Shown piece by piece: positions 33,940 to 45,250 of a DNA stretch of 64,000 bases. The stretch is from Monodelphis domestica. Lineage: Eukaryota. Numbering within the stretch: the first letter of the stretch is position 1; every line of letters begins with the position of its first letter. Location of the stretch: positions 289,270,949-289,334,948 of the forward strand of contig NC_077230.1 in assembly GCF_027887165.1 (NCBI RefSeq). The letters are read 5' to 3'. The position numbers and the translations under genes are program-made. Below the pieces are notes generated by a model. The model was not told the DNA's origin. It was given only the letters and a program-made list of their open reading frames with translations, and did not search any database.

Positions 33940-34252
33940 ATTTCATGAATTTTATTAATAGGAAAGGTAGATCAGCATAGTTTAAAATCTTTCTTACTCT
34001 TAAGTCCTCTGACCATGTTTCCCCTATTCTCCAGTAATCTTTCCCTCACCTGTCTCTCCAGCCCCATTTCTGTTCAAGAAGCCCAGGTATGCCCTACCTA
34101 TTTTCTTTTATTGATGTTCAGATGGTCACTGATGCAAACTCTGATATGTGGGGAATGTTGATGAACTGAGATGGCCCTCCAGGAGGGGGAGGGTATAAGA
34201 TTCCCTCAACATAACCCTCTTAAATCCCCCCGTTATCCTTTGGGAGACCAGC
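33940..34252 (-). repeat. Putative 3' LTR remnant of the intron-5 ERV (direct repeat copy A); adjacent purine-rich PPT-like run in ERV sense (aaaggataacgggggga) at 34238-34262
   Basis: The segment is a direct repeat of 44957-45250. A pyrimidine-rich stretch ccctcttaaatccccccgttatccttt sits immediately internal to it on the + strand. The LTR assignment is inferred from position and orientation. Confidence 0.45.
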
Positions 34253-35399
34253 CTCCCCAATGGATCATTTAAACATAACCATCTTATATGTCTAAACATC
34301 TTCTACCTAAAAGTACATACAATATCGCAATTTTCTAAGAGGAAGTTACAATAGTTAGAGATGAGAGGGAAATATGAGAAGAAAAATATAAAATGATTGA
34401 TAGACACATTGACAAAATGCCAATTTGGGGGCAGTCCCCTTTGGTGTAAGAGTTTACATTCAGAATAAGTATGTTCAACTCCCTTCAATTCATTCAAGGT
34501 TCATTCTGGAACTTTTGGCAGTGTGTAGCTTCTTTAGGCATCTTTACAGCACCTTCTCCAAAAGGATCCGCTTTCTTGATTCGGGATGTTGGCAAGTTTC
34601 TTTTCCTGAAATTTCTCCAAAAATTTTAAATTTTGGATTTTTGGATAATTTCACAATTACCCCCTCTGAGGAGGGGTTGACCCAACACCAGAGTCACCTT
34701 GGGATACATGGCTGAGTTATGAGGTATATGAAACAATTGTCAAAAGAAAAATAAACCCTCCCCAAAAATCCCAGATAAAAAGCAAAAATTAATTTCTGTA
34801 TAAAAACAATTAGAAGTACAAAGTCAATAAAAATAAAAATTTTTCATGTATAAAATTCTGAGTAAAAAATGAACCTGTAACAGGTCCTTGGATCAGTAGC
34901 AAAGTCCAATTAAAGTGACTTATGTCCCACAAACCTGTAGGGCAATAGCACTTTACCCATTTTTAGCCAGGACTATAGAAAATTATCAGACCATAAGAGT
35001 GAAGGGACTAGGTTTCAGTAACAAATGGGAAAAATCATTCCCTGGTTTGATAAGGGGATAAGGGGAACCAGGATGATTGCCATTCTGAGGTACTTGACAA
35101 AATATTGCACAAGGAGTGTGGTACGAGGAGTCTAGCATCTTAATGTATGTCAAGCACCTCAACCTTGATTCTCACACTCACAATACTTTTGTATTGGCAT
35201 AGAATTTCAACAATCCTCCCTGGATTGCTTTGGTACTTTTTTGACCTTGTGCTACTTGGCACTCACTGTATAGTGGCTCTTTTATTACCTTCCCCTGGAA
35301 TCAGACACAATTATTTTACACAATCCCATAACATTTATCAATGTATGGCAGGTTTCCATAGTCTAAAGCTTTCAGGTATGCATAGTTATTAGAGCTAAT

Positions 35400-37180
35400 G
35401 GATACTGTAAGCTTAATCTGTAAACTTTATCCTTCAAGTCAGAAAACATTAATACTGATTTCATGTACTTCAAGGATCACCAAGGATAGGAAAAAAGAAA
35501 GAGAAAATAATCAAATAGCCTATTGCAATATGAAGAAAAAAATAATAAATCATAATTTCATAATTCACGGTCTATGTGACAACGTGTTAACCAACCAGAG
35601 GCACAACACAAAAGGTGCTCACTCAAAAATGAGATTTATATCCCCCTTAACTTGGCCAGGATCCACAGTATTAGAGTACATAATTTTTTTACCAGGTAAA
35701 AGCCTTTTAAAAACAATAGTACAACAATTAATAGAGATTCTAAGAAGTATCAAAATCCCCCAAATCGTAAGAGCCCATTAACCCACTATCATTAAGATTC
35801 ACATGAGTTGCTGTGTGATATTCAAAAAACCCATGAACACATTAATACTTGTCACAAGTTCTACAGATTTAGCCAGTCTTTCAATCTTGGCTGAAATATT
35901 TTTAACAAAGTTTTTTATTACCATCATTCCAAAATTTGGTAGGAGAAAAACCAGAAAAACCTCTGTACATTTGAAAACTGTTTTGGGTCTAAAATGTTAC
36001 CAAGAATCTAGATTATTCTGGTGAAATGGTAGAATAAACTGAAGAGTTACAAATATAATAAATCCATTTCAAAGCTACTAGGCTTCACAGGAAAGATCGT
36101 TCCCACCTCCTGGATGATATTGTAACAAATCACAGGGTAACTAAGCCTCTTGGGCACCTCCCTTCCTCTTGGTATGAGACTGTAACAGTGTAATAGAACA
36201 GTCTCCAATATGTCCCAACCATTTTCCCATGGAGCCGAAGACTAAAAATTGAAAACTTCTTCAGATTTCTAATCAATTACATGTTCAATAAATTCAGTAA
36301 CAACAATGCCATTTCATTTAACTTCAGCTACAAATGGACCCTTACCTCTTGTTACAAACAACTCAGAGGCAGGCAAATGATCAGTCAGAGGTAGGGATGC
36401 TCCTAGATACCTGAAAATCACTTCTGAAGACCCATTAAAATCAAATGAGATTTTAAACTCATCAAATTTTTCAAGTCACTGACCCAGGTCGTAACCATGT
36501 TAATGGGGTCCACCCATCATCATTAATGTGACAATTAACACAAGCAAAAGGAGCAAAAGGCCATTTAGACAACATGTGCCCTCCTTGTGTTACAAATTGT
36601 GGTAATGTTTCATTACTGTGGACTGGAATTGTTGCCCATGACAAAACAGAGCTCAGATGGATCTGGTGACACACCCAGCACCCGTGAGGACCAATGGCAT
36701 TTCCTTGGAAAAGAGTTTTTCCAACTTGTCTATGGCCTTTTATAATGGTATTATCACCAGTTCAGTCTCAGGGGAGGGTACAAATAAAGACAACATAACA
36801 GGACATATAGCTAATAGCCAAAACACAGTAATTGAGGGTGACATAGTAAAATGGAATGATAGATTAGATTAATATGTGAATTCAAAAACAAAATTAAATC
36901 TTTTTTTTTTTAAACCCTTACCTTCCGTCTTGGAGTCAATACTGCATATTGGCTCCAAGGCAGAAGAGTGGTAAGGGCTAGGCAAAGGGGGTCAAGTGAC
37001 TTGCCCAGGGTCACACAGCTGGGAAGTGTCTGAGGCCAGATTTGAACCTAGGACCTCCCATCTCTAGGCCTGGTTCCCAATCCACTGAGCTACCCAGCTG
37101 CCCCCAAAATTAAATCTTTAAACAATTAGTAAATACAACAAATGTGACAAGATACAATGATTCAACATCGATACAAGGTT
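35400..37180 (-). pseudogene. Probable ERV env remnant (very degraded)
   Basis: The position immediately 3' of integrase on the ERV strand suggests env. The only supporting ORF is a short Cys-containing one (36471..36674, …CVNCHINDDGWTPLTWL…). No clear SU/TM motifs could be verified by eye. Confidence 0.3.
36904..37105 (-). mobile_element. tRNA-derived SINE inside the ERV, TSD caaaattaaatcttt
   Basis: Flanking direct repeats are seen at 36888-36902 and 37106-37120, with the SINE body between them. Confidence 0.85.
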
Positions 37181-37183
37181 TTT

Positions 37184-43800: not shown

Positions 43801-43899
43801 GTCTTAATTTTCCTGCAGTTCTAATTCTTGACAGCAGGTGGTGCTATAACTGCATGTAGAGTGGAACACATTTTCAGTTAGGCCGTATCTAAAAATAGC

Positions 43900-44560
43900 T
43901 AGAGAGATGTTAAGTCCCAGAAGAAATGTGGGAGGGGGAAGAGAAAAGACCCCCCCCCCCCCAAAAGCACTTCCTCTTAGCTTAGTTCTAAGGAATATTT
44001 TTGGCTGGGGAAGAGAGAAGGGAAAGAAAAACTGAGTTAAGTCTCTTCCCCTCCACCAGAGGTAAAAGCCGTGAGTTTTCAAAGTTGGGGGTGCTGGGTC
44101 TCGGACAGGGAGCTCCTAACTCTAATCAACAGCCTGGTAGGACCCCCCGGATTAATTTAAGGGGCTCCTCTCCCCGCTACGTTGAGTGGAGCATAGCGTC
44201 AGTGTTTTGCTGGTTTTTACCCAGGATCTCCTATCTTTAGGTCTGGCTCTCAAACTACCAAGCTAGGGAATTCCCAACTACCACAGGCATTCTGCTCCAG
44301 CCCCTCAGTGTGGGGTTTTTTGGGGGGGGGTGCACTGGGTCTTAGGGTCAGCGATCTCTTAACTCTAATCCCCCCAGCCTAGAAGGAGTCCTAGGGATCC
44401 ATTCCTCCGCCCTGCGCTGCACTGGACTGAGTGAAGTGGCACTAGGACCTTGCTTCCTGTTGGGTCCTAAAACCCCCTTTGTTCTGTACAGAAAGGCTCG
44501 AGCCCCATTTGGAATGGGGGGAGGGGGGCTTATTCCCATGCACTGAGCTCTACTGAGCTA
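43900..44560. repeat. GC-rich block containing two diverged tandem ~240-bp units (≈44085-44230 and ≈44325-44460) plus C12 and G9 homopolymers
   Basis: The two units (ggtgctgggtctcggacagggagctcctaactctaatcaacagcctgg… and ggtgcactgggtcttagggtcagcgatctcttaactctaatccccccagcctag…) are clearly related. The run cccccccccccc is at ~43951 and ggggggggg at ~44322. Confidence 0.55.
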
Positions 44561-44956
44561 AGAGGAACTGAGGCAGTGTCCCATGTGGGTTTGGCATTGT
44601 GGCCTGTTGGATGTGGGGTGGGAAATGCCATGTTTTTGTTTTTTAAAGGTGTGGGAGCTGGGGCTTAGGAGCAGGGACTTTTTTTCTCTACCACTTCACC
44701 CGTATCAAAGCTAAAGTAATGTAGTGTGGTGGGGAATCATGTGGGAGGGAAATGCTCACTGATCCGGTGTGATGAACCCGAAAAGAAAAATCATGGCTTT
44801 CCTGTCCTGGCCAAGGTGATCAAAGCAAAAGAACAGTGAAATTCCCTACTCTTTCCTAAGCACTTACTCAGAACTTTTCTCAGAAGAATTTAAGAATGCA
44901 AAATAAGCCTTTCTAATGGTTACCAACTATAATTGAAAATTAATATATCTATGCAG

Positions 44957-45250
44957 TTATTAATTTTATAAAGTTTATTAATAGGAAAGGTAGATTAGCA
45001 TAGTTTAAAATCTCTTACTCTAAGTCCTCTGACCACATTTCCCCTATTCTCCATTAATCTTTCTCTCCCTCACCTGTCTCTCCAGCCCCGTGTCCATCCA
45101 AGAAACCCAGGTATGCCCCACCTACTTTATTTTATTGATGTTCAAAAAGTTCACTGAGTCAAACTAATATGTGGGGAATATTGATGAACTGGGAGGGGGT
45201 GGGGATAAGATTCCCTTGACACTGTTCTTAGTTTCCACATGATGTTGGAA
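44957..45250 (-). repeat. Putative 5' LTR remnant of the intron-5 ERV (direct repeat copy B)
   Basis: The segment ttattaataggaaaggtagattagcatagtttaaaatctc…gggataagattccc aligns at ~88-90% with 33940-34250 in the same orientation. Its reverse complement begins TGTTGAGGG/TGTCAAGGG. Confidence 0.45.

Follow-up and report, generated by a model that had tools for sequence, protein, structure and literature searches.

A window of 64,000 nucleotides from Monodelphis domestica, numbered here from its first letter, carries on its plus strand a gene whose fifth intron is 12,857 bp long. What makes this intron so long, and does its content have any bearing on the gene? Judged by its matches to protein structures, the gene is the orthologue of MPHOSPH8 (MPP8), a core subunit of the HUSH complex. 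The length of intron 5 comes from a degraded provirus that fills most of it: an element of 11,305 bp, oriented antisense to MPHOSPH8 and making up 88% of the intron. The best explanation of this block is an old, inert class I endogenous retrovirus (ERV), inserted as a single provirus with the structure long terminal repeat (LTR)-gag-pro-pol-env-LTR, a reading to which we assign a probability of roughly 0.93. The element belongs to an already known kind and bears no sign of function.

A preliminary description had proposed a degraded, gammaretrovirus-like provirus antisense in intron 5 on the basis of LTRs, a run resembling a polypurine tract (PPT) and an ordered gag-pol series on the minus strand, and this proposal is borne out. 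Its estimate of an 11.3-kb element occupying ~88% of a 12.9-kb intron also stands, with the qualification that ~0.6 kb of the element is demonstrably secondary insertion.

Terminal repeats

Two direct repeats and a purine-rich run mark the ends of the element:

44940-45221, minus strand: 5' LTR, 282 bp, beginning with TGTCAAGGG at 45221; its homology to the 3' LTR stops at ...TATTAA (44940)
33917-34211, minus strand: 3' LTR, 295 bp, beginning with TGTTGAGGG at 34211
34215-34241, minus strand: PPT-like run AAAGGATAACGGGGGGATTTAAGAGGG, read off the sequence

The flanking repeats of ~290 bp noted earlier are real. They lie in direct orientation at both ends of the internal region, and the window holds only these two copies. 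The longest block that they share, the invariant 22-mer GGGGCTGGAGAGACAGGTGAGG, has two sites in the 64-kb window, where none is expected by chance. Both copies begin with TG, and their starts on the ERV strand are those given in the preliminary description. The outer coordinates proposed there (45250, 34252, 33940 and 44957) are off by 17-41 nt. In a global alignment of the two LTRs, 239 of 277 sites are identical (86.3%), with 25 transitions, 13 transversions and five indel events, corresponding to a Kimura two-parameter (K2P) distance of 0.154. The resulting divergence of ~14% replaces the earlier figures of 88-90% identity and 10-12% divergence. The purine-rich run is present and occupies the position of a PPT; it had been placed just inside the lower repeat and is found at 34241-34215, outside the true LTR edge, ending 3 nt short of the 3' LTR.

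Beyond the 3' LTR edge, at a distance of ~27 bp, lies a (TG)n microsatellite of ~23 units (33844-33890), and a second such tract occurs near 325-371.

Gag and pol remnants

The coding remnants all lie on one strand, the minus strand, in the order gag-pro-pol-env, as established from stop-to-stop fragments, Pfam matches and the mapping of two related proteins (P0003 for pol, P0092 for env). Pfam scans were run on stop-to-stop fragments and X-masked frames of the minus strand. From 5' to 3', the gag and pol remnants are:

41224-42545, minus strand: gag remnant, comprising a matrix (MA)-like segment, a proline-rich p12-like segment and capsid (CA; Gag_p30) with the major homology region
40735-40926, minus strand: putative nucleocapsid (NC) remnant, recognised by motif, in which a single decayed zinc knuckle of CCHC type, HYFCAKMGNVIMKC, occupies 40885-40926
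40303-40731, minus strand: protease (PR) remnant, with LLDT at 40573-40596 and LGRDLLCKL at 40360-40386
39400-40209, minus strand: reverse transcriptase (RT) polymerase domain
38810-39319, minus strand: RT connection / RNase H-like domain
38137-38844, minus strand: RNase H, with FIDGSSF at 38653-38673, SAQGAELIAL at 38536-38565 and HCSAH at 38314-38337
37187-38131, minus strand: integrase, with the HHCC region at 38057-38086, core motif DSDGGTHF at 37683-37706 and C-terminal W-x-GP-F at 37223-37243

The capsid remnant is matched by Gag_p30 at 41224-41598 (E 1e-5), with 25.5 bits, slightly under the gathering score of 27.4. Within it, the major homology region QEDNENLSPFMNR at 41317-41355 is of the Q-x3-E-x7-R type. 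A murine leukaemia virus (MLV) Gag sequence used as a probe matches the capsid at E 5.5e-6; its match to the matrix is not significant. The matrix-like segment contains the motif KKKARKFCKAW at 42458-42490 on the minus strand. The upper gag boundary set earlier at 42547 is actually the edge of an inserted LINE-1 (L1) fragment, described below. Between the capsid and nucleocapsid remnants there is a near-tandem duplication of 62 nt (40996-41057 and 41069-41129; 85% identical, 73-nt spacing).

The NC remnant closes at an in-frame TGA and has its frame in common with the protease. Taken together, the CA, NC, PR and RT remnants occupy one frame, with an in-frame stop (now TGA) between NC and PR, as in readthrough-type gammaretroviruses. 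The argument from a shared frame is a weak one because indels are many.

Protease and polymerase give modest Pfam matches (RVP, weak, at E 1e-3; RVT_1 at E 1e-4), and both are placed by P0003, a PR-RT protein of 627 residues that maps continuously onto 40665-38725, with its residues 1-440 covering 40665-39289 at E 4e-148. Because this mapping is continuous, protease and the full RT are present, though ridden with stops. The earlier span for RT, 39637-39912, understated the domain, the true extent being ~40209-39400. The RT connection is matched by RT_RNaseH_2 (E 3e-9) and RNase H by the RNase_H family (E 1e-14). When the connection and RNase H segments are stitched together and compared with the PDB, RT structures of xenotropic MLV-related virus (XMRV) and Moloney MLV (MoMLV), 4hkq and 4mh8, match over ~350 residues at E 3e-65, and every PDB match of this region is an RT or RNase H of MLV type. 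For integrase, Integrase_H2C2 matches at E 1.5e-4, core and C-terminus are backed by the protein relatives P0053 and P0044, and the C-terminal WEGPFQV lines up with W-K-GPY in a Pol protein bearing MLVIN_C (BLASTP E 3e-6). The integrase zinc finger, core and C-terminus of the preliminary description are thus corroborated, as are its three RNase H motifs and its order of capsid with major homology region, RNase H and integrase.

Among Pol relatives in a large protein collection, P0001 and P0003 are 71-72% identical to the element. The remaining relatives are 30-48% identical and of class I type; they come from turtles, bats, birds, amphibians, fish and primates and include carriers of MLVIN_C and Gag_p30. 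P0003 is probably derived from Monodelphis, since its UniParc identifier neighbours that of P0092. An independent contig in the ENA (L001) shows 80% DNA identity to 38122-39253, or 1.1 kb of pol, and because of this match the element belongs to a multi-copy family. The sole contig found for P0001 is 1.1 kb long. Metagenome scans with P0003 and the LTR 22-mer, in which vertebrate genome data are lacking, returned no further copies of the family.

By its Pol, its Gag_p30 capsid and the GPY/F motif of its integrase, the element is assigned to class I (gammaretrovirus-like), on similarity searches rather than a formal phylogeny. The same three features argue against a class II or class III ERV.

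The env remnant and its opossum relative

The inventory of the preliminary description ended with integrase and missed a further coding remnant downstream of pol:

35859-36836, minus strand: env remnant, with a signal-peptide region, the surface subunit (SU) containing CWVC at 36663-36683, YYICNSS at 36031-36060 and the start of the transmembrane subunit (TM) at 35874-35939

The longest open fragment past pol, 36474-36761, contains the CWVC motif. An exhaustive phmmer search with this fragment identified one strong relative, P0092, at 57% identity (E 8e-27). Between 36836 and 35859, P0092 runs colinear with the minus strand (E 2.7e-35 and 3e-6), and it is 49-57% identical over 36836-36338. It falls in a 90% cluster (P0092/P0096) with NCBI XP_007504200.2, uncharacterized protein LOC103105150 of Monodelphis domestica. 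With env present, an env-less, retrotransposon-like ERV is ruled out.

P0092 is an intact open reading frame (ORF) of 409 amino acids that contains a signal peptide, CWVC, a cleavage-like site QNKR and a region like the immunosuppressive domain (ISD) with ...KSCC..., and it stops before any membrane anchor. It matches syncytin-2 (7oix) at E 1.8e-9 and syncytin-1 (8ouh) at E 3e-4, and these matches are colinear, covering the C-terminal block of SU and the immunosuppressive/CC region of TM. P0092 could be a captured or soluble env. No Pfam family was found for it, and it is the only detectable relative of the env remnant among 1.84 billion representatives; a search with P0092 itself returned P0092 alone.

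Direct searches with the remnant are consistent with a very divergent Env. Pfam scans of the three minus frames of 34212-37200 gave no env match, TLV_coat included; phmmer against the PDB gave matches at chance level only for the env remnant and no direct match to a syncytin; and a MoMLV Env probe did not rise above noise in the env region. CWVC, the CXXC motif of SU, is present in the remnant, and the ISD/CC part of TM is not detectable in the remnant itself. The env lineage is probably a divergent one of gamma type, outside the families known to Pfam. Tentative motif readings of a TM anchor and an ISD past pol stood in conflicting order and were dropped.

Decay and later insertions

The provirus is dead. 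The PR-RT region contains 13 in-frame stops, and adjacent high-scoring segment pairs change frame; the longest ORF with a methionine start encodes 186 amino acids and lies outside the recognised domains. The observed/expected CpG ratio is 0.16 in the element and 0.14 in the rest of the window, so that CpG has decayed to background. An old insertion with many stops had been proposed, and these counts, together with the LTR divergence, agree with it. Three further features interrupt the proviral sequence:

36889-37119, minus strand: young, secondary short interspersed element (SINE) between pol and env, body 36904-37104, with its A-tail on the minus strand, enclosed by a target-site duplication (TSD) that is perfect over 15 bp, CAAAATTAAATCTTT
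42546-42925, plus strand: secondary 5'-truncated LINE-1 3' end, 380 bp, with a G-rich tract and an A-tail, at the gag N-terminus
39584-39663, minus strand: perfect 80-nt duplicate of RT N-terminal coding sequence (39952-40031) that has taken the place of ~24 nt immediately before the YVDD box

Because its TSD is perfect over 15 bp, the SINE was inserted later than the provirus. At least 12 further copies of its family occur in the window, the closest being 94% identical (49700-49908), which points to a family recently active in the host genome. The 42546-42925 fragment is most simply an L1 3' end, given its G-rich 3' end and A-tail, and L1-like copies of it occur elsewhere in the window at 53023-53322 and 61054-61196. 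An older SINE fragment (42932-42995) directly follows its tail. The 80-nt duplicate lies 368 nt downstream of its source and differs from it at 0 of 80 positions. As the LTRs have diverged by 14%, such identity means that the duplicate either arose by templated insertion at a late date or is an artefact of assembly.

We infer a single integration followed by neutral decay. A complete LTR-gag-pro-pol-env-LTR provirus would have integrated into the present intron 5 of MPHOSPH8, opposite to the gene. At a rate of 1-3e-9 substitutions per site per year, the K2P distance of 0.154 would place this event ~25-75 million years ago. Point mutations, CpG loss, frameshifts and small duplications would then have accumulated, and at least two later retroelements, the SINE and the L1 3' fragment, would have been inserted. 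The provirus would now code for nothing, and its only transcription would be passive, within the host pre-mRNA, from which it would be lost together with the intron.

Edges, length and composite origin

Several observations weigh against a single provirus bounded by LTRs, and they concern both its edges and its length. At the edges, only the TG half of the canonical TG...CA is present, the homology of the two LTRs ending ...TATTAA (AA, not CA) in both copies, and U3, R and U5 borders are not delimitable in either LTR. The preliminary description suggested aligning the repeats and looking for TSDs at the outer edges; the alignment is given above (86.3%), and the second check yielded one weak candidate that matches at 3 of 4 positions only, with a chance expectation of ~5%:

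45222-45225, minus strand: candidate 4-bp TSD, ACAG, with AAAG at 33913-33916 as its partner

For the primer-binding site (PBS), the sequence downstream of the 5' LTR was compared with the complements of 20 tRNA 3' ends, and the best match, 10 of 18, falls within the range of shuffled controls. The PBS could have been erased by decay. Furthermore, metagenome scans, in which vertebrate genome data are lacking, did not link the LTR family to this internal sequence at an independent locus.

These shortcomings at the edges would also be expected if the 290-bp repeats were copies of some other dispersed repeat, or had arisen by local segmental duplication, and bracketed retroviral debris by chance: such repeats would need no CA end, clean TSD or recognisable neighbouring PBS. 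That coincidence is very unlikely, since the only two repeat copies in 64 kb sit exactly at the ends of the gag-to-env array and in its orientation, both start with TG, and the inner edge of the 3' copy adjoins the purine-rich tract. In addition, their length of 282-295 bp fits the 281-nt LTR of a degraded marsupial class I clade (PMC11334065), and their 14% divergence agrees with how heavily the coding regions have decayed. LTRs of one provirus remain the preferred interpretation of the repeats.

The second group of observations concerns length. A typical class I provirus is ~8-9 kb long. The element is 2-3 kb above this, and the identified insertions explain only ~0.6 kb of the excess. Two stretches, ~3.6 kb in all, are without assignment:

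42926-44939, minus strand: 5' leader region, ~2 kb and over-long, with old SINE-like fragments at 42932-42995 and 44208-44271 and an AT-rich tract
34242-35858, minus strand: 1.6-kb stretch between env and PPT, presumed to hold the decayed remainder of TM and 3' untranslated sequence, possibly with further insertions

The latter stretch gave no match by Pfam in the minus frames, phmmer against the PDB, an MLV probe or Rfam, and an Rfam search over 32000-46500 returned no family.

An over-long leader and an unassigned 1.6 kb after env would be accounted for if the interval were a composite of at least two independent LTR elements, nested or recombinant, with the 5' region or the env end derived from another element. 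Its 11.3 kb compare with 7.3-9.5 kb for marsupial ERVs (PMC11334065), and its env lineage is unusually divergent, with no Pfam match and one relative only. We nevertheless consider a composite unlikely: one gag, one pol and one env lie colinear on one strand, there is no second LTR set and no second RT, the insertions identified are non-LTR elements, and ERV fragments in the opossum reach 12.2 kb (PMC11334065). A single provirus, lengthened in part by later insertions, fits this arrangement better.

Comparison with known retroviruses

Like MLV and XMRV (Gammaretrovirus), the element has the order LTR-gag-pro-pol-env-LTR, a Gag_p30 capsid with a major homology region of the Q-x3-E-x7-R type, one zinc knuckle, a frame apparently common to the gag and pol remnants, an RT connection and RNase H that align end to end with 4hkq and 4mh8, a W-x-GP-Y/F motif at the integrase C-terminus and a CXXC motif (CWVC) in SU. 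It differs from these viruses in that amino-acid identity is only ~45% in the best-preserved part of Pol. Its LTRs are ~290 bp long and end in AA, no PBS for tRNA-Pro or any other tRNA is recognisable, and its Env is too divergent for TLV_coat or an MLV Env probe. Moreover, the provirus is non-functional.

Marsupial genomes offer closer parallels. Harding et al. (2024) described >80,000 ERV fragments in 19 Australian marsupial genomes, and the grey short-tailed opossum carries 18,820 ERV fragments with sizes up to 12.2 kb (PMC11334065). Reported marsupial ERV lengths are 7.3-9.5 kb, and the class I clades MEGrv 1-3 have LTRs of 281-486 nt and thousands of copies (PMC11334065). With class I ERVs of this sort present by the thousand in marsupial genomes, such a provirus is a routine finding. 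The clade MEGrv 3 (representative afERV11564) is degraded, with stops in its core ORFs, a 281-nt LTR and XMRV as its nearest pol at 53.7% (PMC11334065). Compared by table values only, the present element resembles MEGrv 3 in being a class I, type C element with heavy degradation, an LTR of similar length (282-295 versus 281 nt) and XMRV as the nearest pol. Its short LTR therefore lies within the known range. It differs in length (11.3 kb versus 7.8 kb); the MEGrv clades were defined in Australian marsupials, whereas the nearest relatives here are Monodelphis-derived (P0092 and, probably, P0003).

LOC103105150 (P0092/P0096) and the env remnant have the CWVC motif and the YICNSS block in common, in colinear arrangement, and the intact 409-aa ORF of the former contrasts with the stops and frameshifts of the remnant. 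As the only relative of the env remnant, this intact opossum ORF may interest specialists with regard to co-option. The gamma-type Env proteins syncytin-2 and syncytin-1 (HERV-FRD and HERV-W) share the C-terminal block of SU and the ISD/CC region of TM with P0092; their similarity to the present element is distant and runs via P0092 alone, and the element itself shows no sign of co-option.

Host gene and the HUSH complex

The provirus lies between two exons of the host gene:

~32210-32468, plus strand: host exon 5, with a gtaagt donor
45326-45449, plus strand: host exon 6, with a ttgtctaacag acceptor

The two exons are in phase, and the splice sites are canonical on both sides. The label MPHOSPH8 rests on matches in the PDB: the chromodomain peptide of the window matches MPP8 chromodomain structures at E 1e-37, the next family following at 4e-16, and the C-terminal ankyrin region matches the MPP8 chain 8qfb_B at E 6e-105. 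A human MPP8 sequence, used as a probe only, aligns colinearly to ten plus-strand exons between 5038 and 59413. A large protein search for the host gene returned anonymous exon-sized ORFs only. From the edge of the 5' LTR, the exon 6 acceptor is 104 bp away; the ~75 bp reported earlier had been counted from the LTR edge assumed at the time.

Antisense is the usual surviving orientation of intronic ERVs, sense-strand retroviral polyadenylation and splice signals being selected against. Insertions of this kind are usually tolerated because the antisense orientation keeps retroviral signals off the host transcript, and the same orientation would hold the splice and polyadenylation signals of the present provirus off the MPHOSPH8 transcript.

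HUSH, of which MPP8 is a core subunit, represses LINE-1 and has been linked to ERV silencing (PMC8144423), and the position of a provirus within the gene for this subunit raises the possibility of a co-opted function. Possible roles of the provirus or its LTRs are those of an antisense promoter or enhancer, of a source of alternative exons, or of a site where HUSH heterochromatin nucleates and feeds back on MPP8. Apart from the identity of the host gene, the short distance between LTR and exon 6 acceptor would favour such a role, and MPP8/HUSH binds retroelements marked by H3K9me3, with 22% of MPP8 sites being intronic (PMC8144423). The sequence itself bears no trace of constraint: the LTRs have diverged by 14%, all ORFs are destroyed and CpG is at background. 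Rfam recognises no family at the locus. Insertions of this kind occur in every long mammalian intron, and ERVs number in the thousands in marsupial genomes. An intact ORF, one feature expected of a co-opted element, is absent. We therefore regard co-option as extremely unlikely.

A more specific form of this idea holds that the whole retroelement pile of intron 5, comprising provirus, L1 and SINE, is a HUSH target that tunes MPP8 through an autoregulatory loop. If so, the level of MPP8 in a marsupial would be set by HUSH acting on its own gene in a retroelement-dependent manner. No account of HUSH autoregulation by way of the introns of MPHOSPH8 turned up in a literature search, and we give the loop next to no credence. 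The location of the provirus in the gene for a HUSH subunit is probably a coincidence.

For an inert class I provirus, the consequences are mainly practical. Annotation should mask the whole 11.3 kb as class I ERV sequence into which a SINE and an L1 have nested, lest its fragments pass for genes or for exons of MPHOSPH8, and the presence or absence of the insertion among marsupials could be used as a dating marker.

At the other end of the host gene, the first coding exon of MPHOSPH8 (5038-5136) falls within a GC-rich block at 4001-6000 (55%, compared with ~35% elsewhere), which presumably represents the promoter CpG island.

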